From Eledone cirrhosa (Eukaryota): 64,000 nt of DNA. The position numbers and the translations under genes were made by a program. The stretch is taken from the NCBI GenBank assembly GCA_964016885.1, contig OZ024759.1, forward strand, positions 4,588,001 through 4,652,000, read 5' to 3'. Under the pieces are notes generated by a model. The model worked only from the letters and a program-made list of their open reading frames with translations. It had not been told where the DNA came from and searched no databases. Shown in pieces: positions 1,008 to 33,782 of the stretch; the first letter of the stretch is position 1; every line of letters begins with the position of its first letter.

Positions 1008-2600
1008 TTAAACCCTGAAGAAAGGACTTTTAGGTCCCGAAATATTGGACAGATAAAAGAACAACAACAAAAAAACAAAACAAAGATTACCAGGTAACTT
1101 TTACTTTTCCTTACCTCATCTTATTGTCCATTTTGCATTGTTTAGCCTTCTATCTCTTTCAACGTTATATTTTATATAGAATGCTTCAAACAAACTACAA
1201 CATTTAATTATATATCATCATCATCATCTTCAATTAACGTCCATCTTCCACACTAGCATGTGTTAGACGGGTCCCATTTAGAGGCAAGTGTGGGCTGGAT
1301 GCTTTTTTGCTGTCTTCTACACGTCCAGTGTGGGTGAGATATATATATATGTGTATGTATATATCATCACCATTTAGCGTCCATTTTTCCATTCTTGCAT
1401 GGGTTAGACGGGTCATTCACACCAGGAGGCAAGTCTGGCCAGGGTTGGCCATGTGTCGCACCTTGCTCAGGTGAGGTCTGTAAATTTGGTGGGGTATTTT
1501 ACAGCTGGATTCCCTTCCTAACATCAACCATGTTTACAGTGTGGAACTGGATGGCTCTGTTATGAGGAGGGACAGGCCAGTTGGCTGCACTGAACTCATC
1601 TCACAGTGGAACTATAATTTTGGGGGGCCTGGTACTGGGTGGCACCATTGAGGAGGGGGTAGCCAGTCAGCTGCTCCAAACTCATCTCACGAGGTTACCA
1701 CAGTTTTGGGGCCCTGTACTAGGGGCTATAGTGATGGTGTAGCTAGTTTATATGAATAAGTAAATCTGACGCAGGTATATTTCTACAGTTTACCAATGTA
1801 CCGTACTTACTGGCGCCAATGACGACCAATTTTTGAAAAAAAATAATAATCAACCTTCGGCCTCCAGGACATATGGTAGATATTTTGGACTTATATTAGG
1901 GAAAAAGTAATGTCTTTGATGCTAGGAAATATGGTGAAAATTTAAAATTTCCACTGTTAAATCTATCCCTGCATTTTAAGTATTCTCTATTATCTCATAC
2001 TGTTACTTTCTTATAAGTCCTATAAGAATGCAATTTTTGCTAAACTGCCATAGAGCAGACCTCTGAAGTGATAGAAGGATATAATTTATAGAGCATGCTG
2101 GAATACCACTGCTTACATTGGAGAGAATTTCTCTGGACAGAATGTTGATATCTACATTTTACCAATATAGAAATATAACATTTCCACTGTTAAATCTATC
2201 TCTGCTTCTAAAGTATTCTCTATTATCTCATACTGTTTCTTTCTTATTTCAGAATATCAGATGACATTGGGATAAATTATTATTTTCAATCTTGGATACA
2301 TCATCTCTATTTATCATCATTTGAAGACTAAAACCTTCTAAACAGAACTTATATAACACTGTTTATATAAATCTATAGTTCAATTACTGTGAAATATTTC
2401 CTCAAAACTGAGTTTATTTTCTTCACTATAAGATGGTTTTGTATTTTAACTAAACTTGGATGAAACAGAAGTTTGTATTATCTTCAGATATTAACTGAAA
2501 TCACAGTTGAGGGAAATATAGAAGAATATTTTATAAGAAATATAATATAAAAAATATTACAAGAAAAACATCTGTATATTCTGTTGAAGAAGAAATCATT

Positions 2601-3320
2601 ATGCCAAATAAATTGACAAAGAAGATTAAATGTGTAACACAATCTAAAGTGTTTAGTATTGCTGGTGAGATGACAAAGGTTAGAGAAGAGAAGCCATATC
2701 ACTGTGATATCTGTGATAAATCATTCTCTCAAAGTGGTACCTTAACTACTCACAAACGTATACATACAGGAGACAAGCCATATCACTGTGATATCTGTGG
2801 TATATCATTCTCTGGGAAAAGTAGCCTAACTACTCACAAATGTATACATGCAGAAGAGAAATCATAATGCATTGACATCAGTGATAAATCCTTCTCTCAA
2901 ATTTGTGAATTAATGAGAATACAAATACATATCATTGTAACATCTTAGGGAAATCCTTCTCTTTGAATGTTACATTAACTATACACACACATATACATAC
3001 AGCTGGGAAGCCATATCACTTTGATATATTTGGTACATCATTCTCTAAATGTTGTGGCTTCACTAGACACCAACATCTACAGGAGAGGAACCATATCACT
3101 GTGATGTCTGTGATAAATCCTTCTCTAAATGTTGTGGTTTCACTAGACACCAACATATACATACAGGAGAGGAACCATATCACTGTGATGTCTGTGATAA
3201 ATCCTTCTCTAAATGTTGTGGTTTAATTAGACACTAACATATACAGGAGAGGAACTATATCACTGTGATGTCTGTGGTACATCTTTCTCTTATAAAGATT
3301 ACTTAATGCAACACAATTAG
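2601..3320 (+). pseudogene. C2H2 zinc-finger array, decayed after two intact fingers
   Basis: [40 protein letters not shown]...HKCIH, then a stop at 2867. About five more fingers (ccatatcactgtgatgtctgtgataaatccttctct) follow with stops and frameshifts. Candidate splice acceptor ttcttatttcag at ~2251. Confidence 0.85.
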
Positions 3321-4545: not shown

Positions 4546-6090
4546 CATTTAGTGGTTTGAAGTATGCTCCAATTTTCCTCCCCTTCACATCTTAACACTC
4601 CACCCCCTTACCAGCTAAGTACACCACCCTGACCTACCTCTCCAATCCCCACTCTACATACACACAACCCCACCCCCACTTTCACATCTGATACACCTCT
4701 CTTGACCAACCCATGTATACAAGTAAGGAAAGCTTAACATTATCTCCTCCAATGCTGCTGAAATGGCTAAAAGCCCTCAGGCAACCCTGTAAGGTGGTCA
4801 TGCAAGTGTCATGACAAAAGAGCACCAAGTCCTCTCTGTTAGGTAACATGACAAAAGAACACCTAACCCTCCCTGCAAGGTAGTCATGCTGATGACATGA
4901 CAAATAAGCACCCAGTCCACCCTGTGAGGTAGACATGACAGAAGGCCCCTAGCCCACTCTGTAAAGTAGTCATGCTAGTGGCAAGACTGAAGGGACCCGA
5001 AGCACCCTTCAAAGTGATCAAATTGGTGACATGACTTGACACCATTTTTTAGTTTACTTCTAAAATATCTCATTTTTATTTTACTTCTAAAATATCTCAT
5101 ATATTTAAAAATTACTTATTTTAAAAAATTATTATTTATTTCTTAAAAAAATTACTTTTTAAAGATTATTTAAAATTTTTTTATATTTTTTAATATTTTT
5201 TAAATATTTTTAAACATTTTAAATAGTTTAAGTACTTTTTAAGTATTTTATTTTGTTAAAAGGGTTTTTTGAGTATCTTCTGAGATTAAAAAAAAATTTT
5301 TTTTTATTTTTCCAGAAATGTTTTCCAGAACTTTTAATATTTTAATATTTTAAATATTTTTTAATTATTTAATATTAGAGTTATAACCAATAACTAATTC
5401 TGGCTATATATATCTTTCAACATTTATATCTTCGTCAAAATGGTCTCTTACTAACTAATAAATAAACAAAGCTGGGTTTTTCAGTATCTTCCTAATTTAA
5501 AACATTAAAAACATATAAATAATCTTATTAACTCAGTTAATTTAATTACTTACACTAAATATAAACCAGTATCCCTCATAACTTATTAAAACAATTATCT
5601 ATAACATGATATAGCCATTTATCCACTCATATATCTATTCTTCTATCTATTGATTCTCCTATTTTCTACTTTATATCTATTTATTTTCAATTTATTATTC
5701 AATGTCTTTATATATATTTATTTTTTCTATATATCTATTTTTCTATATACTTATAATAGTAAATATTATATTGTATTATATTAGAATTCTAACAATAATT
5801 AGTAAATATACGTAACATTAATATAAACGTAATACTTATTTACGTTACATGAGTTCATCCTCTATAAATGTCTTTCTTCTCTCTATCTCTCTATCTATCT
5901 CATAACAGTAATTTTTTTCTCTCTCTTTCTTCTCTTTCTTCCCTATCTTTCCCCAGCGTAATTTAAATAAACGGTTGTTTTTTCAATTTTTCATACATTC
6001 ATTTGCATATTCACACATAACTTTGAATTACCCCTAATAAGTTTCCCCTATCCAGCGAATTTCCGACCGTTATTTATAAAACAAATTTTG

Positions 6091-6155
6091 TATTTTATCT
6101 GATGAAAGAGCACCAAGATTGACTTGGTCGCCCTTGAAATATATATAATAAAATA
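6091..6155 (+). ncRNA. Minimal type I hammerhead ribozyme motif
   Basis: Stem I TATTTTAT/ATAAAATA (8 bp). Core CTGATGA 6099-6105. Stem II AAGAGC-ACCAAG/CTTGGT-C-GCCCTT. GAAA 6136-6139. Palindromic stem III ATATATAT. Cleavage triplet AUA, cut after 6147. Confidence 0.8.
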
Positions 6156-7271
6156 AATATGCAAAAGTTCTATTTAAATTGTTGGGATACAACAAGCAAA
6201 TATGTTTATAACTGATATAAAGCACTCAACAAGTATTTGGAATAAACATACGATATTAACAATCCTTTTGTATTTTATGTACTCAATTATACGATGTACT
6301 ATATTGATTTATACTTCTCTCTATATGTGAGTATATATGTATATGTGTATATTGACATACATGTACATGTGTTCTATGCATTTTTATGAATATATGTCTG
6401 TCTGTATGTATGCATGCGTGACGCGAATCTACCAATTGGCCGAGGATGCACACACATGTATATATATGTATATGTAAGAATTGTGTGTGTACATGTACAT
6501 GTATACCCATACAATTTGATTGCAGATAGACATAACTAACAGCCATAAATGCATAACAGCTAATCTTATATATTTATATATATATATATTAAAAAAAATT
6601 TGTTATAAAAAATATTTTATTTAATAACACAAAGGATGGATAACATTAAATTAAAAATTCATTTATGCTTTGTATGTATATATTATATACGTGGTTAGAT
6701 ATGGTGTGTATTTTGTGAGTGTGTGTATATATATATATTTATGTGTATTTTTGCGTGTGTGTACGTGTTATATGATATGTAGTTCTCTAGCAATATATAG
6801 ATTTCTTAATGTTTAGATTCCAATTTTTAATATATTGATCTCAATTTTTAAACTAAATATCTAATCATAGTTAAACAATGATTAATTTCTCATATTATGT
6901 ATGTATATTCCATTCATGATTATTAATATTTCTAATTTTATTTATTCATTTCATCTCAATTGTTAAGTTAACTTAATATGACATGACTTAATGTGTTCAT
7001 TCTTTCCCCCTCTCTCTATCTCTATATTTTTGTCTCTGTCTGGTGTTTTGATATATCTCTCTCGTTTTTCTCTCCTTTTTCTTTTTTCTTGTTTTCTTTC
7101 TTTCTTTCTCCCTTTTCTCTCTCTCCGTCCTTTTCCTTATCTGTAACACAACGACTTATTTTAAAAATACTAATATAAGTAAACAACTCCACTATCCCTG
7201 AGTCTTCCAAAAGTAACGGTTGCATTTTGTAAGGGTATGTCAATATTTATTTATAAAACTGTTATATATTG

Positions 7272-7336
7272 TATTTTGTCTGATGAAAGCATACCATAAT
7301 TTAACATGGTATCCTTGAAATATGTATAATGAAATA
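7272..7336 (+). ncRNA. Minimal type I hammerhead ribozyme motif
   Basis: Stem I TATTTTGT/ATGAAATA. Core CTGATGA 7280-7286. Stem II AAG-C-ATACCAT/ATGGTAT-C-CTT. GAAA 7317-7320. AUA triplet, cut after 7328. Confidence 0.8.
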
Positions 7337-7404
7337 GATATGGTTTTATAAATATAGTTTCCATTTGTTAATATCGTATAATAAAATAAATATAGTTTTA
7401 TAAA

Positions 7405-7785
7405 TCATCATCACCGTTTTACGTCCGTTCTTCCATGCTAGCATGGGTTAGACGGGTTGTCCTGTTGTGGGCAGTGTCTGGTCGGCTGACCATGCCTTGC
7501 TCATACAGGAACTGATTTTGGCTTTTCTATAGCCGGATGCCCTTCCTAACACCAACCTCATTTACAGTGAGTGTTGCGTGCTTTTTTCCGTGGCACCTAT
7601 GCGTCCACTTTACAGTGTGGGCTGGGTGCTTTTTTTGTGTGGCACCTCCACGACCACTTTGCAGTGGGAGGGTGTGGGGGCATATTGTCTATATGCTTCA
7701 GCTTGAACCCATGGGAGGTCGGGTACTCTGTATTACTGCGTGATGCCAGAGGTCACGGTCGTGTGTCATCGCCTTTGAGAGGTGT
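7405..7785 (-). mobile_element. 5'-truncated RTE LINE 3' end (ORF end, 3' UTR, GAT tail)
   Basis: Close reverse-complement match to 33395-33775. Confidence 0.9.
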
Positions 7786-8046
7786 GTGTTTATATATATA
7801 TATATATACAAATAAATTATCGAGAATCGGAATCTCGGCCCATGAAATAATGAAACACAATCAAAGTGCTCAATAGTTTGGATAAACCAGAGCTATAACT
7901 AACGTTTAAATACCAACACACTGAGATAATGCTTAAAATCATTCGCACAGCCGAAAAAAACGACCAAGAAAATTCGGGTCAGACAAATAATAAATATATA
8001 TATATATATTTTTTCTTTTAACATATATGTGTATATAAAATATATA

Positions 8047-8121
8047 CAGGGTCTCCCCAAAAATGTATACACACTTCAACTACAGTCTATGTAAGTGTGT
8101 ATACATTTTGGGGGGACACTG
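8047..8121. mobile_element. 75-bp Tc1/mariner-type MITE
   Basis: TA|cagggtctccccaaaaatgtatacacactt...aagtgtgtatacattttggggggacactg|TA. Confidence 0.85.
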
Positions 8122-8569
8122 TAATATACATATCATTAAACGTATCTCCTACATGTGTATAAATAAATATACATGTATTTAATTAACAATTTTCTGTAGA
8201 ATCTGTTAAACATGGAAGAAAATGTGGAGACTAAATAAAATTAACGTGTTGGTCACATTAACTTAATAATATAACTATATATTAATGAAATATGTCGAAA
8301 TAAAAGTTGTAATTGTGACAAAAATATTGAGTTGGTAGTTTATTATGACCAAGACTACTCATTATCCCACTACATATTTTGTATACTATATATATACTGT
8401 ATATATACAGTTTATATATATATACACACACACATATAATTGCGTATTCACACATTATCTTAGTAATGAAATAATAATTTTAGTAAATTGTTCACCAGGC
8501 AATTCCTTCCTCAATCATTACATAGATGTGTGTATGCAATAATTATTTTGTATTGTGTGTCTATTTAGA

Positions 8570-11500: not shown

Positions 11501-12200
11501 CACAGTAGATGTGTATATATAACACAGTAGATGTGTGTATATGTAACACAGTAGATGTGTGTATGTAACACAGTAGATGTGTATGTAACACAGTAGATGT
11601 GTATATATAACATAGTAGATGTGTGTGTATGTAACACAGATGTGTGTATGTAACTCAGCAGATGTGTGTATGTAACACAGTAGATGTGTGTGTATGTAAC
11701 TCAGCAGATGTGTGTGTATGTAACACAGTAGATGTGTGTGTGTGTGTAACACAGTATGTGTATGTAACACACTAGATGTGTGTGTATATATAACACAGTA
11801 GATGTGTATGTAACACAGTAGATGTGTATATATAACACATTAGATGTGTGTATATGTAACACAGTAGATGTGTATATATAACACAGTAGATGTGTGTATG
11901 TAACAGATGTGTGTGTATGTAACACAGTACATGTGTGTATGTAACACAGTAGATGTGTATGTAACACAGTAGATGTGTATATATAACACAGTAGATGTGT
12001 GTATATATAACACAGTAGATGTGTGTGTATGTAACACAGTAGATGTGTGTATGTAACAGTATATGTATGTGTATGTAACACACTAGATGTGTGTGTATAT
12101 GTAACACAGTAGATCTGTGTGTATGTAACACAGTAGATCTGTGTGTATGTAATACAGTACATGTATGTATGTAACACAGTAGATGTGTGTGTATGTAACT
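8570..12200. repeat. Complex minisatellite, ~20-26 bp units (gtaacacagtagatgtgtgtgtat and variants)
   Basis: 3.6-kb array with recurring variant blocks (gtaactcagcagat, atataacacagt, acactagat). Confidence 0.97.
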
Positions 12201-13054
12201 AAAGTGTAACGTACGTTACGAATGGACAACTAAAAGATTTTAACTTGTTTTTTAACAATTCATGGTGGAAAAAAATTTTAGTTGTCTCAATTCAGACCAT
12301 AAAGGGCCGCAACACACGGTGTTTGACGCACTTACCGGCTACATAGCCTCGGAGTCTATTTTACTGAGACCAGCTACATATCTTCTTCCTAAAATCTTCC
12401 AACATAATTTTATACAAGAACCACATGTTAAGTTACTAATAAAATAATTAATAATTAAAAACTTCAGTAAATCCTTCAAATGATATCTCAGTAATGAAAT
12501 AATTAATAATTGTTATAAATACCTCAAAATTCCTCATTAATTAAACCCAAGACAGGTAAAAACTCCAGAGTCTTTCAATCGGACATGAAACAAATTAATT
12601 TCTAATGAAAGAAGATTGTAAAGTCAGCCAAGGGAGATCACTCTCAGCGACTTATCGTAATTCTTGTTCCTGAATTAATCCGGATGAAAATATTCCGGTG
12701 TATTTTGTGTGGAGGAAACCGGATTTAGGCGGTGATAGCACGCAATACATGAACGTATGGTTCGTGAGTTCGAATCCCATACCGGGTGGTCTGTACGTCG
12801 GGGCCTTGAACAAGACACTTTATTTCTCATTGTTTTATTTCACCCAGCTGGCAAAAATAATAAGTTGTAATAATTATAGTGGAAATGTTGTTACATAGAA
12901 TTGTCACACTGAATCTCCCTGAGAAGAATGTCAACGGTATACGTGTCAATGAAATACTCAGACACATTATAATATAAGATGGGTTCTACATGTATTTCAA
13001 AGGGAAGCCATGCCATACGTCTTGCTGAATCTCCCTGAGAACTACGTATATACT

Positions 13055-13740
13055 AGTGACTATCAGACATAGTGTATCTAGGATTACATTATCTAATGTA
13101 CAGTACAGTAGTTAGTATTAGTGGCTATAAGACATAGTATATCTAGGACTACATTATCTAATGTACAGTATAGAAATTAGTATTACTGGCTATAAGACAT
13201 AGTGTAACTAGGACTACATTATCTAATGTACAGTATAGAAATTAGTATTAATGGCTATCAGACATAGTGTACCTAGGACTACATTATCTAATGTACAGTA
13301 TAGTGTCTATCAGACATAGTGTACCTAGGACTACATTATCTAATGTACAGTATAGTGGCTATCAGACATAGTGTACCTCGGACTACATTATCTAATGTAC
13401 AGTATAGTAGCTATTAGACATAGTGTACCTAGGACTACATTATCTAATGTACAGTATAGTGGCTATCAGACATAGTGTATCTAGGACTAGATTGTCTAAT
13501 GTACAGTATAGTGGCTATCAGACATAGTGTATCTAGGACTACATTATATAATGTACAGTATAGTGGCTATCAGACATAGTGTACCTAGGACTACATTGTC
13601 TAATGTACAGTATAGTGGCTATCAGACATAGTGTACCTAGGACTACATTATATAATGTACAGTATAATGGCTATCAGACATAGTGTACCTAGGACTACAT
13701 TATCTAATGTACTATATAGCAGTTAGTAATTGTGGCTATC
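13055..13740. repeat. 52-bp (some ~65-bp) minisatellite
   Basis: Unit gactacattatctaatgtacagtatagtggctatcagacatagtgtacctag, about 12 copies, each containing the palindrome tacatta-tc-taatgta. Confidence 0.95.
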
Positions 13741-13759
13741 ATTATTATAGACTTCAAGT

Positions 13760-13930
13760 CGGTAGAGGGTCAGACGCCATGCTTTCCAGCATAGTTACGT
13801 CCCTTTACGATCTGAGTTCAAATCCCGCCGAGGTTGACTTTGTCTTTCATCCTTAGGGGGTCGATAAAATAAAGTACCAGTAATGCACTGGGTAATTACT
13901 GGTCTTGTGCCTAAAGTAGAAACAATTATT
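13760..13930 (+). mobile_element. SINE, inverted relative to the copy at 14415-14600
   Basis: B-box-like gagttcaaatcc and body tttcatccttagggggtcgataaaataaagtaccag. Family also at ~29845, 35150, 37120, 38615, 39020, 43615 and 46920. Confidence 0.8.
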
Positions 13931-14101
13931 ATAGACTTCAAGTAAATCTTTGTCAACTTACCTCCTTCACATATAATCAATGTGTTGTGTTGTTAGTTGT
14001 TACTAAACAACCAAAGAAATAATCTCTTTGTTATCAAATTAGAAGTTTCAATGTTATCAGCTTTATTTCCCGACATTAACGTTGGTGTATCTTCTTCATC
14101 T

Positions 14102-14160
14102 TTAGTCATAAATTGATATCTTGTCAGAATGAAGTAGTGAGGATGACTTTATATCTTTAG
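14102..14160 (-). CDS. Candidate terminal exon of the multi-EGF gene
   Basis: Acceptor atttcctatcaaatctgtag; phase-1 frame gives (A)KDIKSSSLLHSDKISIYD*; AATAAA ~35 nt downstream. No homology support. Confidence 0.2.
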
Positions 14161-14414
14161 CTACAGATTTGATAGGAAATATATATAGATTAGATTGATA
14201 TGTGGTCTAAAATATATATATTGTCTATAAATGACTGATAGCAGATGTTCTGGTGAAATAGTAGTTTTACTACTACAGATTGTAATGGAACTCTTAGTAG
14301 ACACAATTGTAAAGTAAGAATAGATATGACAGTGTAAGACTGATGTCGGGGAAATAAACTTGTGTGTATATATATAATTGTTACACAAGATATAATTAGA
14401 TTAATTAAAGTTAT

Positions 14415-14600
14415 AATTGTTTCTACTTTAGGCACAAGGCCAGCAAAGACCCAGTGCATTACCAGTACTTTATTTTATCGACCCCGTAAGGATGAAAGGC
14501 AAAGTCAACCTCGGCGGGATTTGAACTCAGATCGTAAAGGGACGTAACTATGCTGGAAAGCATGGCGTCCGACCCTCTACCGATACTGCCAATTCACCGC
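14415..14600 (-). mobile_element. SINE
   Basis: Near-identical reverse complement of 13760-13930. Confidence 0.8.
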
Positions 14601-14834
14601 AATGAAGGCAGCAGGTACTCGGTATCGTTGCGCATGTTTCAACTCTCTTCCTGGTGTCATACGTTAAAAGTCCCTGATATAATTTAATACCTTCAGACAC
14701 AGTTCCAATCGTTTTTAGTTTATTGTAAATCAGAAAGTATCACTCTATAAAATATCAATTATATATCAATAAGAAAACCTCTAGGTAGTCTCACTGACTG
14801 CTAGAAATAGCAGCGATATTACCCATTACAACTG

Positions 14835-14867
<33 letters not shown>

Positions 14868-15504
14868 CACACATATATGTACGTATGTATGTATATGTGT
14901 ATATATGTGTATGAATGAGTGTGTATGTGTGTATATGTGTACATAGGGTTTTGGTATATGTACGTTTGGTGAACATATGTGTATTTACCTGTAGGTATGT
15001 GTGAGTGTGCGTTCTATACGCATTTATGCGTGTATATTTATATATGTATTTATAATTATATGTATATATACACACACAAACATATATTTATATGTGTATT
15101 TGGTGCATACAATCGTATGTGTGCGGGTATATGTGTTGCGCCGGTTTACGTCCGTGCGCGCCTGTTTATGTGTACGTATATGTATATGCATGCATGCCGT
15201 GAGTTTTCGCATATGCTCGTGTATAAATGTGTGTATGTATATATTTAATTATTATTACTTTTATGATTTTAATGACATCTGTCATTTTCGTTCAACTAAT
15301 TTATTTACATTATTCTGGACTCCGAAGCCGAGCATCATTCAGTTTCCTTAATAGAATATTAGTCTACGACTCCATTTACACCATAAACGTGGTTTTGTCT
15401 TTACGTGTAATTGTTGTCACCGCTCCACATAACGACGTATTATCTTCTTTTTCCCGTTCATTGCCAGGGAACGTCTTCACGAATCAAAGCATAAATTATT
15501 TTCA

Positions 15505-16065
15505 CGAGCTGACGTACCCAGCTTCGCCCGGGTAAATAGATGATAAAAGAAAAGGTCCCTATTTACTCCCTTCACAACTCTGTATGTTAGACTGACAGAC
15601 AGGCACACAGACAGATAAACTGCGTGGCGATTGTGGAACGCCACACGTATACACACATACACGCACACAAACTTACACACGCACCCGTGCACTTACACAC
15701 ACGCACACACTCACACATGTTGATAGTTTTTACTTTCTGTGGAACGCTGCACGCACGCACACATACATAAACATACGCGCACGTACATACACACGCACAC
15801 ATGTTAATAGTTATTGCTTTACTCCCCCTCTTATTTCCACACACATCACACACACACACGTCTCTACACTGACACATATACATAGTGTATCCAACACAGC
15901 GTTCACTTTGCCTCTCTCTCGCCTCTCACTCTCTCATTGGCATTATACATATTAATTTAAGTTTGGCGTCGTTGAGGTGGGCGGAGTCGTTAGAAACCTA
16001 TGAACCAATGATAATCGAGAATTATGACACACGGAATATTGACATTGTTGAAATTAATATATAGA
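15505..16065 (-). mobile_element. Non-autonomous Helitron (internal-deletion derivative)
   Basis: 5' TCTATATATTAAT at 16065. Body matches 21490-21903. 3' hairpin acccgggcgaagctgggt followed by CTCG (variant of CTAG) then T. Confidence 0.85.
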
Positions 16066-19000
16066 CTAGCTGACGTACCCAGCTTCGCCCGGGTAAACAG
16101 ATGATAAGAGAAGACAGGTAAAAGAGAAAATGTCTGTATTGGATGTTTGTCTGGTTACAGTGTGAGGCGAGTCCGTGTTGTCTGTATGATACAAAAAAAC
16201 TGTAAAAGAAATCTTCCAGATATACCAGATTCTTCGTTGTCCGGTTTGTGCATAGTATATGAACAATTCTAGGTGCTCCCACCTAGAATAGTGACCTCTA
16301 GGAGATGGTTCCTCTTCGGCCTGACTGGAAAACGTGTATCATTGCATAGACGTGTTGTTCCACGTTTCTCAAAAGGATGATGGAAGTTCCAATCTGTTAT
16401 ATTATATGTAGATATAGATATAGATAATTAATAAAAAAGATGTCCGTCAATGTAAAGAAGGTCCCTATTTACTTGAAATGGTTTATACAAATGCCAAATT
16501 AATATGGATATGGATAACATGCTTATCTATAAGTGGTCAGCTATAATAATAAACCAACAAATTATATGACACAAACATTTATTCAGTAATTTCCAGGCTC
16601 TTAGCCACTGAGTAATAGACAGTCAATATTGCCCAGAGTTCAACTCGGGGAGGTGGCCTGGTTTGAACTCAAAATGGCGGATCCTTCTACTTCGAAAATA
16701 GAATGGTTTTTCAATATTACTCTAGCCCTGGCCGGCCATAGGCACCAAACTTTTTGCCAGACTCAGCATATGATGAGGTTTTATTACCACTGCAATCAGA
16801 AGCGATAAATTTGAAGGCAATTTCTACCAATACTTGTTGGTTTTTATTGCTCATTATCGACAATAAATGACATTGAACATAAATGATAACTCTGCCAAAG
16901 CTCACAATACAGATGAAAGGAAACCAATGTCCGAATCATATACGTCGCTTATTGATAGCATTAAAGATATGCATACATCAGCTCAAAGCTTCATTATAGA
17001 CAATATTTAGGTTTGTTCCTCTGTTAGTGGTATCAATTGCAAATTTTATACCATCAGGATCGCACACTCGAGATGCAGCAACATACAGTTGCCCATGGCT
17101 GGATCATTCAAGCAGACACCGACTCGCTTGAAAGTCTGTCCCTGTGCCTTGTTGACAGTCATGGAGAAGGCCAAATTGACGGGAAACTGTCTCCTTTGCC
17201 AAATAAATGGCAGCAGATCTTCACTTGGTCTCAGCATGATCCTCGGAATGAGAACCGATTCCTCTCTGCCTGGGAGTTTAGCTTCTAAAACTCTTCCGTT
17301 AATCAATCTCTCAACAATCAATCTGGTACCATTGCAAAGACCCATTTTATGATTGATATTTCTAAGCAATATAATCGGCAAACCCTTTTTCAACCTCAAA
17401 ATATGTGGGGGAAATCCGGGTATTTGAAGTGAATTCAGATACTCAGTCGGAACATCCATACTGTTCTGCTGATTAGGCTCCATTGCATCCGCACTGACGG
17501 TCAACCATTCCTCTCCAGGAAACATTCCGGCTACTTGTGAATTTATTTCATCGACCGTTGCATTCGTATGAGTTAGAATAACACGTTCCGATATTCAGGA
17601 GAGATTCTGCCAAAAAGCATTCAAATTAGGGAACACCCAGTCAATCAAGCCTTGGCGGTCCAGTGGCATGACCAAATGGTCTGGGATTCATACAGTCTGA
17701 TTATCACCAACGTGTGGCAATTCATCGTTTCCCAACTGCATCAACCATCGGCCGTATGTCTCAGCCTCTTCGTTTTGCCCGAACATAGGAAGTCGCATAT
17801 TATCGTGTAATCGCAAAACTCTGAAATGGCGCCACAATGGGTACTTTTTCAGACATGCATCGACAATTTGCGCTCTTTGAGCATTCCTAACAATTGGTAG
17901 CACCTGTCTGAAATCGCCACCAACAACGATAGTCTTACCACTGAATGGCAGGTCACTACCGCAGATATCTCTCAAAGTTCTGTCCAATGCCTCCAGCAAA
18001 TATCTGTGTGCCATTGGAGCCTCGTCCCAAATAATCAGAGACGTATTGCGTATAAGGCCCGCGAGTTCACTTTGTCCTGTAATATTACAGACACTCAACT
18101 CATCTGGAGCCAATGGAGCCTTGAAGCATGAGTGGAAGGTCCTTACACCACTCAGCAAAGTGACAGCGATGCCCCTGGTGGGCACAGGGAGAGCAATCTT
18201 CCTCTGAGCTCTGACTGCCGATAACATAGTGTTGAAACAGAATGTCTTTCCGGTGCCTCCTGGAACATCTATGAAAGCACAAAGTTGCTCATTAGTGGAA
18301 ATCGAGTGGAGAGCGCCATCGACCAATTCTCTGTGAGATTGGGTCAACATTGGCATACGTTCATCCACAATACGTTGCTGTTCCAGTGGATCAAACTGGA
18401 ATAGTTCCCTCCGATCGAGTGGCAACCGTCTAAGCTGCAATCTCATGTTCAATGCTAAGACACGTTGCCGCATTTCTTCATCAGGAATTGGTAAATTGAA
18501 ATCTGTTAAACATTTCAAATGAACTTCGAGCAGTTGCTCAATATTGAGCAAAACAATAGCTTTCAGCAAATTTTCATCATAGACCTGAAGATGATGCCTA
18601 AAATCATCAGCCATAATTCCCCAATGGCGTTCAAATAACTCTCTTGGATCGGCAGGTTTGCAGAATCCTAGAATCGTGACAAATAACTGCCTTATTCGAG
18701 CTGGCATCTGTGTTGTTCCTGCAGCTTCCATGGCGTTATTCCATTCAGCGTCATCCTGAAGGAGTCCCAGATGCTGACCCACAGCCTGGTATCTTTTATA
18801 TTCCACGCCATTGATTGTTTTCAAATCAGCGAAGCTCTGTTTACCTCTCGAAAAATCACTATGCAACAGAACTCGGAGATAAAACACATCACCAGATGCT
18901 GGATGGACATTACAAACCCGTCCAATAGTCATGAATCTCAACTTTTGTTTTCTATCATTCCATTTCTTTTCCTTCTTATCCCACGTATAGTGCGAAGGGA

Positions 19001-21903
19001 AATCGCAGTAGAGTTGCTTTTGATCCGGGTTCAAAGCATGTTCCCTATTATGCTTGAACCACTCAGTCAATTCCGTCTTAGGAGGTGGTGCGTTAGCAAT
19101 TCTTTCGATACCTCTTCTAGTGTCCTTAAAACAGACCATTTGCCTATTCTCTAAGTGAACCGTCAGTTTCTGAACGCTGGGTTTGCGTTCAATGAGATCA
19201 AAATCGAACAATCTCCAGCAAGCTTCGCTAGATCCAATCGAGCGAACATCCTGGAACCTGCCAACTTCATCTCCTTGGTTCACTTCCTCATTCCTGACAT
19301 TCATCATTGCCCCATCATGACCTTTGTAAACATACTTGAATAGATATTTGCAAGCTTTCACTGAGCTACAAATTTCCACATTAATATGACAACGATATTT
19401 CATAATCAAATATGGATTGTATGGCACAACCCATTGATTTGTAACCTGTCGACCGTTTACATTTTCGACCAAACCGCCATCGGCAGGCGACCGTCTTCTG
19501 TATGAGGGATGAGCATCCCCATCATTCCAGGAAGTGTTCGTGACAAAAGATTTCGGAAAGTGCTTACTGCATTGGCCATTTTTCATGCAAGGCGCTTTCC
19601 GATTTGCCACTCCGCATTGGTTGTGCACCATTGACTTTGCCACCAAGTTGCATAGTGCCTCATTCTCCGGCAGTTCAGCACACACAATGCTGTCGACATC
19701 CTCAGCACATCACAATTTGCAATCTCTATGTAAAATGATCAGCAAATGTGCATGTGGCAATCCTCTTTTTTGGAATTCAATTACGTATGTAAAAGCAACT
19801 ATACCTCCAAAGATTCCCTCTTTTTCCACATCATCCATTATTTTTTTCAGATATCCTTTGAATACTCTTGCCACAATATCAGGACGGTCCTTTGGCTGTT
19901 GTCCTGGCAAAAGTGCATCCTTAATATCAGTCCATTCAGGATTGCATGTAACTGTTATAAACAAATCTGGCTTTCCAAACTTTCTGACAATAGCCATTGC
20001 ATCCTGATAGCGAATGTTCATATATCTCGGGCCGCCGATGAACGACGATGGCAAAATGATGCGTCGACCAATTTGCTTGTAATTGGCATCATCGGCTGTT
20101 ATCGCATCCTGTATATTATTATACAATTCAGCTCTGATATGTTGCTGATGTGTAGCTATATAATTTACCCTTTGATTTTCGATCTTTGCGTATGCCATAC
20201 AACAGTATTCCTGGAACAATCTGCTGGCTTGAAATAGCGCATTTCTCTGTTGATTCCTCTCGTTCAAATGGAACGCGTAAAAGTCGCAAATCGAATTATT
20301 GTGTCTATTGCCACCTCCCTGTTGATGCTGATTCTCATGATCACCTAAATGAACAGACATGCTCCATCCATTTTCACCTTTTGGGAATAAAAGAACATAA
20401 TGCAATGGATGGTATGTCCTATTTGACTCATTGATAGTGTTGAGACCACCATCTCTGCGATTGAGGGCGATATCTCTCGATCCAGGCTTATCGTCCATCA
20501 ACACAGCAACTTCACGAAATCCTTCAGGGGCATTATATCGCCGTTCGTGTTGATTCCTTGGCACTGCGTCAGCCTTAATCATCAATGTTTGTTGCTGAAC
20601 ATTTTGCAGTTCAGCCACCAACATGAAATCCATAACATAAGGATTACACTGTCTAAGCCATGATTGCAAATCATGGATCAAATCACTTAACCTTTGCCGT
20701 TCAAGTTCAGTTATATTTCCCGGCAACTTCATCCAACCGATCCTGATATCCTCCTCCGATTCACTATAATCTGGATCGTTAACGTAAATTTGAGCGAACC
20801 AAGGCCTCTCTCCTGGGGTAACTTCTAAATTACCGATACAATGATACAAACGGCATTGAATGACGACATTCGGTTGCCATGCTCCACTCTCAAACATCTA
20901 ACTCTCTGCGATGCTAAAGCTAATAAATTGTTAATTTGCCGCGAATATTTGCGCAGTAATCTACCTCGGTCTCATTGATCACCCCACATACTTAGTATTT
21001 TAAACTCCGGTGACTCCCCATCATCCGGCATTCGCAAGGGTTCTAGTTGAACTGCTCCTTTGTGACAGCACATTGTGGTCCACGTCTTTTCGTGCCACCA
21101 AAGCAATGCTCCACAATGTGGAGACTCTGCTCGTCCACCAATCTGACAGTGACACGGTTGCCATGATCCATTTTTAATATCATTCGTTCGCCTTCTAGCC
21201 TCTTTACTGGAATGAGGAGCACTTTGCGACACATTCCCTGAACTTCTGTATTGCGCTGGCGCTGTTCAGCCAGCTCCTCTTCATCCATCGGAGCACGCCA
21301 TTGCTGCTGAATTCTGGCCACCTGCTGATGATGCTCAGCCAGTTCGTTTTTCAACCATCGCAGCACTCCGTCGCCGCTGTAGTTCACTGTTTGATAAAGT
21401 CGAATTGCTTTTCTTATCAGTATTCATTTGGAGCAATTGTAAAAAAAAATGACACAATAATAAATATAAAAGATGTCCGTCAATGTAAAGAAATGTCCCT
21501 ATTTACTCCCTTCACAACTCTGTGTATGACAGACAGGCACACAGACAGATAAACTGCGCGGCGATTGTGGAACGTCACACGCATACACGCATGGAAACGC
21601 GCACATGCACGCAAACTTACACACGCACACACTCACACATGTTGATAGTTTTTACTTTCTGTGGAACACTGCACGCACGCACACACACATAAACATACGC
21701 GCACATACATACACACGCATACATGTTAATAGTTATTGAACACAGTGTTCACACTCTCCCCTCTCACTCCCTCATTGGCATTATGCATATTAATTTCAGT
21801 TTGGCGTCGTTGGGGTGGGCGGAGTCCTTTGAAACCTATGAACCAATGATAATCGAGAATTGTGACACACGGAATACTGACGTTCTTCAAATTAATAAAT
21901 AGA
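16066..21903 (-). mobile_element. Helitron with disrupted RepHel ORF
   Basis: A|TCTATTTATTAAT 5' end at 21903; subterminal hairpin plus CTAG 3' end at 16066; internal Rep and helicase motifs. Confidence 0.93.
17046..21387 (-). pseudogene. Helitron RepHel transposase (HUH endonuclease + Pif1/SF1B helicase), frameshifted
   Basis: N-terminal Zn-knuckle remnant HCGALLW...CCHKG. Rep motifs DLFITVTCNP, VIEFQKRGLPHAHLLI, KYLFKYVYKG. Helicase motifs GGTGKT, WDEAPM, GDFRQ, LCNGTRL, RRQFPVNLAFSMTVNKAQGQT. Split over five ORFs. Confidence 0.95.
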
Positions 21904-28234: not shown

Positions 28235-28362
28235 ATTATATAGAACAATAAAACATGGCACTAGATGTTCAACCCAAGACCTTATGATTGAGAACAGCAC
28301 ACCTGTAACCTCTAAGCTATATATCTTCACACAGACTTTCTGATAAAGACAGAAGTACCCAC

Positions 28363-31065: not shown

Positions 31066-31299
31066 CTGGATGAAATAAAGGATCAAACAGAAATTTAGTA
31101 AATTTAACCCTTTAGCATTTACATTACTTTATATATATATACTATTGTATTTTTACAGTAAACACTTTATCACATATTATGGAGTCTAGGAGATTTTGAT
31201 GATGATATTATTTATTTTGAGAAGAATACCTTAATGTCAGTATTGGTGACCGGTTATTGAAAGAAGTCAATATATAACCCTTTAGCATTTACATTACTC

Positions 31300-33782
31300 A
31301 TAGACATTCAATGTAGAAGAGAACTGGGAGTTCCTAAAAAATAACTTACTAGAGGCGACGGATGAGGTCTGTGGCTGGAGTAAGACCTCAAGCAGGAGGA
31401 GAGTGACTTGGTGGTGGAACAATAAGGTATATGAGGCAGTTAAGGCCAAGAGACAGGCATGGAAAGAATGGAAGAACGGGGGGAGCAGGGTAAATTACAT
31501 AGAGAACAAGAGGGAAGCTAGGCGACAAGTATACTTAGCTAGGAGGGAAGCAGAGGATAGAAAATTCAAGCATGTTTTGCAATGTAAGGACCAGAAACAG
31601 GAGGTGTTCAAGATTGCGAGGCAGTGTGTCAGAGAGAATTGTGATGTCATTGGAGAGAAGTGTATCCGGAATGATAAAGGTGAGCTTGCCCTCACAAGTG
31701 CTGAGAAGAAAGATGCATGGAAGAGTCATTATGATAGATTACTAAATGAGGAGAATGCATGAGAAGAAGAGACCCTACCCCAAGTAGACCCTATAGAGAG
31801 GCCAGCAGTACAAGTCAGCAGCAGCGTAGTAAGTAAGGCAATCAAAGATATGAAGATGGGGAAGGCAACCGGTCCATCGGGTATAGCTGCTGAGATGCTG
31901 AAGGCATCTGGGTCTGTAGGTCACACTATAACCACACGTATTGTTAACCAGGTAATACTAGAAGGTGTCATACCAAAAGATTGGTGCAGTAGCATTATTG
32001 TCAACTGCTACAAAGGTAAAGGTGATGCACTAGATAGAGGAAACTATAGAGGTATAAAGCTGATGGACCAGGTCATGAAAGTAACAGAAAGAGTTATAGC
32101 ACAGTTGATTAGGGACCGGGTGAAACTAGATGAGATGCAATTTGGATTTGTACCAGGAAGAGGCACCACTGATGCCCTCTTCCTTGTGAGGCAGTACAGG
32201 AAAAGTACCTAGCTAAAAGCAAGCCACTCTACCTGCCATTTGTCGATCTCGAGAAAGCCTTTGACAGAGTTCCACGTGCTGTAATCTGATGGGCTCTTAG
32301 AAAACTAGGAGTAGATGAATGGCTTGTGAAAGCGGTACAAGCCATGTATAGGGGAGCAGTCAGCAAAGTTAGGATTAGCAATGAGTATAGCGAGGAATTT
32401 AGCGTACAGGTTGGGGTCCACCAGGGCTCTGTTCTTAGCCCCCTCCTGTTCATCATAGTCATGCAGGCAATAACGGAGGAGTTTAAGACCGGATGCCCAT
32501 GGGAACTCCTGTATGCTGATGACCTCGCACTTATAGCTGAATCTATGGTAGAGCTAGAGAAGAAATTCCAAACTTGGAAGCAGGGACTAGAAAGAAAGGG
32601 TCTCAAAGTCAACATGATAAAGACTCAGGTCCTTGTAAGTAGACGAGAAAACAGAACCCAGATCCCCTCAGGGAAATGGCCTTGCTCAGTATGTAGGAAA
32701 GGTGTAGGTAGGAACTCCATTCCCTGCCCCAAATGCAAACAATGGGTACACAAGAGATGTAGCGGGATCTCAGGAAGCTTAATTAAGAATGTAGGCTTCA
32801 CATGCAGCAGCTGTGCTGGGACAGCACGCAGCAAAAAGCCACAGGAAACAAGTACCACCAATCTCTCGGAGGGCTCTGTAGAAAGAGTAGACCGCTTCTG
32901 CTACCTAGGTGACCGAATTAGTAGCGGAGGTGGGTGTTCAGAAAGTACAATAACTAGGGTAAGAACGGGATGGAAGAAGCTTAGGGAACTACTACCACTG
33001 CTAGCTGCAAAAGGCTTTTCCCTCAAAATGAAAGGCAGACTGTATGATGCGTGTATCCGAACAGCAATGTTGCATGGTAGTGAGACCTGGGCGCTGAAGG
33101 TGGAAGACTTATGTAGATTAGAGAGAAACGAAGCCTGCATGCTCCGATGGATGTGTAACAGTAATATACGCGAACGACAAAGCATAAATGAATTGAGAGA
33201 GAGACTGAGCATAAGAGGAATCAAATGCTGTGTGCAGGAGAGGCAGTTGCGTTGGTATGGACATGTGATGCGTATGAAGGATGACAGCTGCATAAAAAGG
33301 TGCAGAGCACTAGAAGTCGATGGAAACCGCGGAGTGGGGAGACCCAAGATGACCTGGGATGAGGTGATAAAAACCGACCTTACCCAATTCCACCTCTCAA
33401 AGGCGAAAACACATGACCGTGACCTCTGGCGTCTCGCAGAAATACAGAGTACCCGACCTCCCATGGGTACAAGCTGATGCATATAGACAATAAGCCCCCA
33501 CACCCCCCACTTCAAGGTGGTCGTGGAGGTGCCACGGCAAAAAGCACCCAGCCCACACTGTAAAGTGGACGTGTAGGCAACACGAAAAAGCACCCAGTAC
33601 TCACTGTAAATGAGGTTGGTGTTAGGAAGGGCATCCAGCTGTAGAAATCAAGCCAAATCAGTTCCTGTATGAGCAAAGCATAGTCAGCCGACCAGACACT
33701 GCCCACAACAGGACAACCCGTCTAACCCATGCTAGCGTGGAAGAACGGACGTAAAACGGTGATGATGATGATGATGATGATG
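31300..33782 (+). mobile_element. 5'-truncated RTE LINE inserted into a piggyBac-like MITE
   Basis: RT motifs QFGFVPG, GVHQGSVLSP, LLYADDL; PHD-like Cys insert CSVC...CPKC...H..C...CSSC; (GAT)n tail; actc repeated at 31296 and 33783; stops and frameshifts. Confidence 0.96.

Follow-up and report, generated by a model that had tools for sequence, protein, structure and literature searches.

Two hammerhead ribozymes in an Eledone cirrhosa contig probably mark a nested insertion into the ribozyme of an older family member

Two hammerhead ribozyme motifs lie on the plus strand of a 64,000-nt stretch of Eledone cirrhosa DNA (contig OZ024759.1; the whole stretch is here called the window). Our analysis suggests, with a probability of about 0.72, that the locus is the nested insertion of a noncoding member of a hammerhead family into the hammerhead of an older sibling, likely mobilized by a Penelope-like element (PLE); the mobilizing enzyme is only inferred, as the family has no linked PLE coding sequence. 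A single event of this kind explains four facts: the departure of family contigs at 6161, the reversed tail behind hammerhead 1, the stop in the flank of hammerhead 2, and the reappearance of the 3′ part of hammerhead 1 farther downstream.

Results

Two Type I Hammerheads

Both motifs carry the CUGANGA, GAAA, and UH elements and helices I to III in type I order, specifically a CUGAUGA box (at 6099 in hammerhead 1 and at 7280 in hammerhead 2), GAAA, and an AUA triplet, with predicted cuts after 6147 and 7328, an offset of 1181 nt. In each motif the proximal part of helix I has 8 bp, helix II is made up of 3 bp and 7 bp separated by a mismatch, and helix III is palindromic and 2–3 bp long as a monomer. 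A descriptor scan of both strands of the 64 kb returned these two hammerheads and no more, the same descriptor found hammerheads in 0 of 200 local shuffles, and a relaxed version added one unconvincing match at 31217. These results confirm the two complete cores, with 8-bp stem I and long stem II, reported in the first-pass annotation of this DNA. The Rfam hammerhead models, which that annotation had proposed as a check, matched neither motif up to E 10, and the Rfam searches gave chance hairpin matches only. PLE hammerhead variants are known to escape standard descriptors, according to the available sections of PMC4209133.

The strands of helix II differ between the two motifs, as had been written down from the sequence, and still pair: 3 of the 7 outer pairs are changed on both strands with pairing kept. 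Further paired forms occur in family variants at 6111 and 6129 and in one loose contig end from a public run (X1, described below), so that helix covariation among copies is found as counts of paired changes. The two hammerhead motifs are real, and they stand although the long direct repeat once proposed around them does not.

Differences outside helix II are of another kind. Across the 74 letters that align outside helix II and the indel segment there are five differences, each an A in copy 1 (hammerhead 1) and a G in copy 2 (hammerhead 2). At one of these five places the family has G too; at the other four, X1 has no A-to-G change among the differences listed, and at most two of its five A-to-G places fall outside those. 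The G at these four places, 7278, 7324, 7331, and 7337, appears, from this comparison, to be derived in copy 2, and a copy-2 subfamily could have escaped the 80% likeness cut used for the contigs. All four G's can form G-U pairs. The stem I changes, earlier described as G-U compatible, are weak as evidence of selection, because all are A to G in copy 2. The same pattern is expected whether a subfamily was under structural selection or ADAR edited the template before it was reverse transcribed. Such RNA editing may lie behind the copy-2 changes, a tentative explanation that we hold to be somewhat doubtful, and a narrow literature search found no paper on ADAR edits fixed in retrocopies.

A Family with a Fixed End

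Part of the stretch is contained in 7 of 11 public runs (four organism labels), with no RNA run on record among them. Contigs of 4 of the 11 runs, whose library type is unrecorded or guessed, were compared with positions 5400–7000 at the 80% likeness cut; the evidence, among the matches listed, comprises 24 of 423 loose ends, 40 of 64 differences, and 32 of 6405 pieces. In X1, 5451 contigs match 5400–7000, and their summed depth, which is not copy number, is maximal at 6048–6263 (3.6–8.4 × 10^5), compared with ∼500–51,000 in most covered bins elsewhere and 1.9 × 10^5 in one microsatellite bin. The depth of X5 and X6 peaks at the same place, far lower. We rejected summed depth as a measure of copy number, X1 and X5 being ∼3000-fold apart over the hammerhead and <3-fold apart over a microsatellite. 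The gap between these runs at 6048–6263 might reflect recent amplification, the type of library, or high expression, any one of which would suffice. In X5 the flanks of this segment are nearly unchanged, with 3 differences in ∼930 nt (five pieces listed), despite the ∼3000-fold depth gap to X1.

Among the loose ends listed, 19 and 95 X1 contigs depart from the window at 6070/6071 and resemble the sequence upstream of hammerhead 2, and at 6161 contigs from X1 (55), X5 (4), and X6 (1) go on like the hammerhead 2 flank. At 6153, also among the ends listed, 35 X1 contigs, 2 from X5 and 1 from X6 start after (TA)n, and at 6259 two X5 contigs run into the reverse complement of 7350–7366 (17 letters exact) and two X6 contigs into a diverged form of that flank. 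A junction of 6161 with 6233 on opposite strands, present in one X1 contig, again places the tail 3′ of the hammerhead. Together, the loose ends at these positions point to a family order of hammerhead, ∼50 nt, the reverse complement of 6262–6153, and a fixed end in (TA)n, and the outer end at 6153 is found in (TA)n in X1, X5, and X6 alike. The tail also contains a 6-bp hairpin at 6180–6200, 20–40 nt inward from the fixed end, that is preserved in divergent variants from X1 and X6 and is possibly a signal for the start of reverse transcription. Pattern scans for the hammerhead family gave 0 matches in metagenome contigs and 0 in viral contigs.

Architecture of the Locus

Table 1. Features of the locus, labeled as for a probable nested insertion
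Feature	Position	Strand	Evidence or remark
Upstream body of older copy, with CT-rich tract at ∼5870–5956	5400–6069	+	Repeated in X1; not homologous to the sequence upstream of copy 2
Hammerhead 1 (older, target copy)	6070–6161	+	Descriptor scan; family contigs depart at 6070/6071 and 6161
Hammerhead 1, helix I	Distal 5′ strand 6071–6082; proximal 6091–6098/6148–6155	+	
Hammerhead 1, core, helix II, GAAA, palindromic helix III	6099–6105; 6106–6135; 6136–6139; 6139–6146	+	
Left copy of exact 17-nt duplication	6144–6160	+	Identical to 7377–7393, offset 1233; 0/1000 shuffles, neighborhood picked after the match was seen
Inverted left arm: family 3′ tail 6153–6247 (95 nt) plus 15 nt, 6248–6262	6153–6262	−	Contig ends
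Inner insertion body, without coding frame: CT-rich tract, AT-rich pieces that are moderately repeated, and decayed TA/TG microsatellites	6263–7246	+	Contigs to 7000
Hammerhead 2 with complete distal helix I (7248–7259/7343–7354), core 7280–7286, 51-nt flank	7247–7379	+	
Right duplication copy, then displaced 3′ strand of hammerhead 1 distal helix I	7377–7404	+	
Unrelated short repeat truncating the older copy	7404–7784		91% over 384 nt to 33391–33769, inverted

The coordinates in Table 1 describe two arms of unequal length. The outer end of the left arm is the fixed end of the family (6153), and the 15 nt at its inner end are an inverted match to the end of the right arm, that is, to the hammerhead 2 flank (2/1000 shuffles, in a neighborhood likewise picked after the match was seen). 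Family contigs that depart from the window at 6070 and 6161 have loose ends that match the flanks of hammerhead 2. The right arm has its outer end at 7376–7379, the flank stopping where the tail should begin, and on sequence grounds this position is a candidate for a second fixed family end. The piece at 7377–7404 agrees with 6144–6160 in 17 of 17 letters and with hammerhead 2 in 26 of 29, and 7395–7405 is complementary to 6072–6082. Since some letters at each arm end are also those of the target, the length of the duplication is ambiguous; the true target duplication is 6 to 17 nt, or 9 nt with 6153 taken as the end of the left arm. When the 1233 nt between the repeats are removed in silico, a family-type hammerhead with a distal helix results: in this empty-site model the distal helix (10 bp) is restored and the hammerhead-constrained fold lies 0.7 kcal/mol above the optimum, vs. 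3.1 for the locus as it is. An inverted tail, a 15-nt overlap, an exact 17-nt duplication, and a displaced helix I strand make up the observed geometry, alongside the fixed end of the family. Three hallmarks of PLE-mobilized DNA are present, an inverted, truncated arm with a tail at one end, a fixed end in (TA)n, and a short target-site duplication (17 nt as an exact repeat, 6–17 nt in truth), for which no empty allele was seen.

The inner body may itself be composite, with further insertions, and the repeat that truncates the older copy is one that we take to be RTE-associated and SINE-like. Two other matches, one direct and 13 nt long at 6086/6266 and one inverted and 12 nt long at 6349/7235, were set aside as about what chance would give in 2.6 kb of AT-rich sequence. 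That the tail blocks the ribozyme as its antisense was a marginal result (25 and 28 of 1000 in alignments, 8 of 500 duplex shuffles) and is not claimed, and the folding of module plus tail showed no excess, 46–82 of 100 shuffles being equally good.

The same arrangement could in principle have been assembled by independent events, in which an inverted tail landed on its own behind hammerhead 1, another family copy inserted 1 kb away, and 7377–7404 was generated by local slippage from hammerhead 2. The alignment of 7369–7403 to the 3′ half of hammerhead 2, with ∼10 nt of similarity upstream of the junction (0/300 shuffles), speaks for this history, the family sequence is nearly the same at 7377–7404, leaving the origin of the piece ambiguous, and several (TA)n tracts in the spacer are plausible targets. 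However, the piece is 17/17 identical to copy 1 but 3 of 29 letters off copy 2, the abutting of the arm ends on the family RNA would have to be coincidence, and the loss of the 3′ end of hammerhead 1 stays unexplained. We therefore regard separate events as unlikely.

Homology Is Confined to the Ribozyme Module

The motifs had been described as diverged direct repeats set in a similar context. Hammerhead homology is in fact confined to 6070–6161 vs. 7247–7342, with 78% identity over 97 columns, or ∼95 nt, a score reached by 0 of 300 shuffles. All flanks are at the level of chance: shuffles reach the score for the proximal upstream flanks in 53 of 300 cases, for the distal upstream flanks in 215, for the CT tracts in 185, and for the downstream flanks in 88 and 139 (each of 300). 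The two elements of the supposed context, CT tract and aacggttg, do not survive as such, the CT tracts being no more alike than shuffles and aacggttg, common to both copies, lying out of register, 129 nt from one core and 65 nt from the other. tatttataaaac does occur in both copies; it is no flanking context, and forms the 5′ strand of distal helix I, part of the ribozyme module.

A proper alignment thus finds no shared flanking homology, the outcome that the first-pass annotation had named as counting against its retrozyme unit. In that model the 1181 nt between the motifs (6148–7328) would be the monomer of a non-LTR retrozyme, cut out, circularized, and retrotransposed as a unit. In its favor are two intact cores of like orientation, between which a joint helix III could form (−3.2 kcal/mol), a spacer that is repeated in X1 (summed depth ∼500–51,000 in covered bins), and a circular fold of −221 kcal/mol vs. 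−201 ± 6 in 20 crude shuffles, although just 60% of bases are paired in that circle. Against it, homology is missing beyond the module, no head-to-tail homologous monomers are found, and family contigs depart from the window on both sides of hammerhead 1. The 1181 nt also exceed the few hundred nucleotides expected of such monomers, published sizes being 170–400 nt (PMC7229834) and, in a search limited to 1000, 51–972 nt (bioRxiv 10.64898/2026.07.22.740005), in the portions of these sources available. Since flank homology is absent and the spacing is explained by nested insertion, 6148–7328 is not supported as the monomer of a retrozyme-like repeat, and we consider this history very unlikely. 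What remains of the original assignment is a pair of noncoding type I hammerheads of the Penelope/retrozyme kind, whose palindromic helix III would, by prediction, require a dimer.

Predicted Activity

Helix III is predicted at +4.7 kcal/mol as a monomer and at −3.2 as a copy 1/copy 2 dimer. Depending on context, the predicted pairing probability of helix I is 0.00–0.12 for copy 1 and 0.01–0.46 for copy 2, in a model that ignores core contacts. By these predictions, the motifs are most likely weak, dimer-dependent self-cleavers in the family RNA, and a plus-strand transcript of the locus might release the 1.18-kb RNA only as a by-product. Eight of nine Xenopus retrozyme dimers were uncleaved in vitro, as stated in the available part of bioRxiv 10.64898/2026.07.22.740005.

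Coding Capacity and Surroundings

No Penelope reverse transcriptase (RT) or GIY-YIG domain was found among 63 short frames from 12200–17000 and from most of 4990–8560 (no Pfam match better than E 0.036), in agreement with the earlier statement that no such frame is visible nearby, and the frame encoding RT and GIY-YIG between pLTRs that marks an autonomous PLE is absent here.

Repeats abound in the window, which contains LINE relics, microsatellites, and a Helitron-like PIF1 frame; an EGF-repeat gene lies on its minus strand at 28–64 kb. Twin priming is a mechanism of the L1 literature, and the least probable of the alternatives keeps the nested insertion and assigns it to a LINE-type enzyme priming from the RNA 3′ end and an internal site. 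Such priming would give a formally identical geometry, a duplication of 17 nt would be in keeping with a LINE, and RT-coding LINE relics lie within the window, but there is no poly(A) or simple-repeat 3′ end, and the fixed end in (TA)n and the type I hammerhead are both PLE traits.

Further elements were seen on either side of the locus. Upstream of hammerhead 1, at 5938–5964 and 6043–6065, are similar pyrimidine-rich stretches that end in CCAG and resemble 3′ splice sites; the intron of Drosophila virilis Penelope ends at helix I (PMC4209133, in part). Also upstream, 2560–3300 (plus strand) holds a frameshifted C2H2 zinc-finger array, likely a pseudogene. Beside a (TA)n tract at 7809–7990 is a long minus-strand hairpin that may be an arm of another family; its likeness to the tail is weak (37/1000 shuffles) and is not claimed. 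A short inverted-repeat element, presumably MITE-like, lies at 8040–8133. On the minus strand, 16593–16671 gives a weak Rfam match to an HDV-like ribozyme (24.6 bits, E 0.75), and 17046–20897 holds broken Helitron-like frames with a PIF1 helicase match (E 4.8e-60). Eleven EGF-like exons of near-identical length, belonging to a multi-EGF gene, are found at 28361–63912 (minus strand); an intronic position of the hammerhead locus is not supported. A 31-bp minisatellite of ∼140 units begins at ∼55900.

Discussion

The nested insertion that we propose can be put as a sequence of steps. The target would have been cut on both strands within 6144–6161, the AT-rich helix III/helix I region of the older hammerhead, a target that falls partly within the (AT)4 palindrome of helix III and partly next to it. 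The top-strand end would then have primed cDNA at the fixed outer start site, the tail end, with ∼110 nt copied to give the inverted arm; the last 9 nt of the tail are complementary to the target at 6153–6161. The bottom-strand end would have primed at a candidate second site, 95 nt further 5′ on the RNA and 51 nt behind the ribozyme cut site, to give the long arm with hammerhead 2, and joining of the arms would have left a target duplication of 6–17 nt. The core and the 8-bp helix I of hammerhead 1 are retained, since the end of the arm rebuilds them through the 9-nt complementarity of the tail.

The proposed insertion has counterparts and contrasts in known systems, here compared with the available portions of the cited work. 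PLE insertions can consist of an inverted, truncated copy with a tail at one end and an 8- to 10-bp duplication, prefer (TA)n, and include insertion into another Penelope (PMC3846280; PMC8557442), and the locus shares the inverted short arm, the one-end tail, the short duplication, the AT-rich/(TA)n target, and insertion into another copy. Poseidon_Ac was shown in vitro to cut AT-rich DNA, its own pLTR included, on both strands and to extend the two strands, and its RT has two internal start sites on the RNA that delimit the tail; cleavage by the hammerhead was dispensable and depended on the protein (PMC11167929). Unlike in these accounts (PMC3846280; PMC8557442; PMC11167929), the tail is noncoding here and the target is the ribozyme of a sibling; 9 nt of the tail end are complementary to the target, whereas the Poseidon_Ac enzyme primes without homology (PMC11167929); and the tail, at 86–95 nt, is longer than the 30–40 nt published for PLEs. 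A narrow literature search found no paper on self-insertion into a hammerhead or on twin priming by PLEs.

The ribozymes themselves resemble the hammerheads of PLE pLTRs (Cervera and de la Peña 2014, PMC4209133) in their type I form, long helix II, small palindromic helix III, predicted dependence on a dimer, occurrence mostly as single dispersed motifs, and covarying families. In contrast to the pLTR hammerheads of that source, helix II closes with A-U rather than the usual G10.1-C11.1, the AUA triplet is accompanied by U15.2-A16.2, helix I has 8 bp with a 12-bp distal extension, and no ORF is linked. Metazoan non-LTR retrozymes (PMC7229834; bioRxiv 10.64898/2026.07.22.740005) are, as reported there, likewise noncoding, with a type I hammerhead, low GC, and probable dependence on PLEs; what sets the present locus apart from them is the lack of tandem monomers and the 1181-nt spacing. 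The family works like the end of a PLE pLTR, lacks the tandem arrangement and size of a non-LTR retrozyme, and has no ORF. Cephalopod hammerheads have been reported before, with 235 Rfam matches in the giant squid (PMC6962438, in part). What the locus adds is a clean, readable junction and a testable idea of self-targeting.

In its strongest form, that idea makes the ribozyme its own homing site: the (AU)4 palindrome, which dimer cleavage needs, would act as a miniature (TA)n target that, with the 9-nt pairing of the tail, favors self-insertion and rebuilds hammerheads, each event would create a two-hammerhead cassette that can be excised and circularized, a route to the birth of retrozymes, and ADAR edits in the hairpin of the template would become fixed as G-U "covariation." As a whole, this scheme is speculative and improbable.

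Both ends of a Penelope-type insertion are preserved at this locus within a nonrepetitive target, so that, unlike in (TA)n, the duplication can be read, and a readable junction bears on how two-armed insertions form. It also carries a caution, that two hammerheads on the same strand ∼1 kb apart need not be a retrozyme monomer. If self-targeting were systematic, it would provide a mechanism for the proposed origin of retrozymes from the ends of PLEs.
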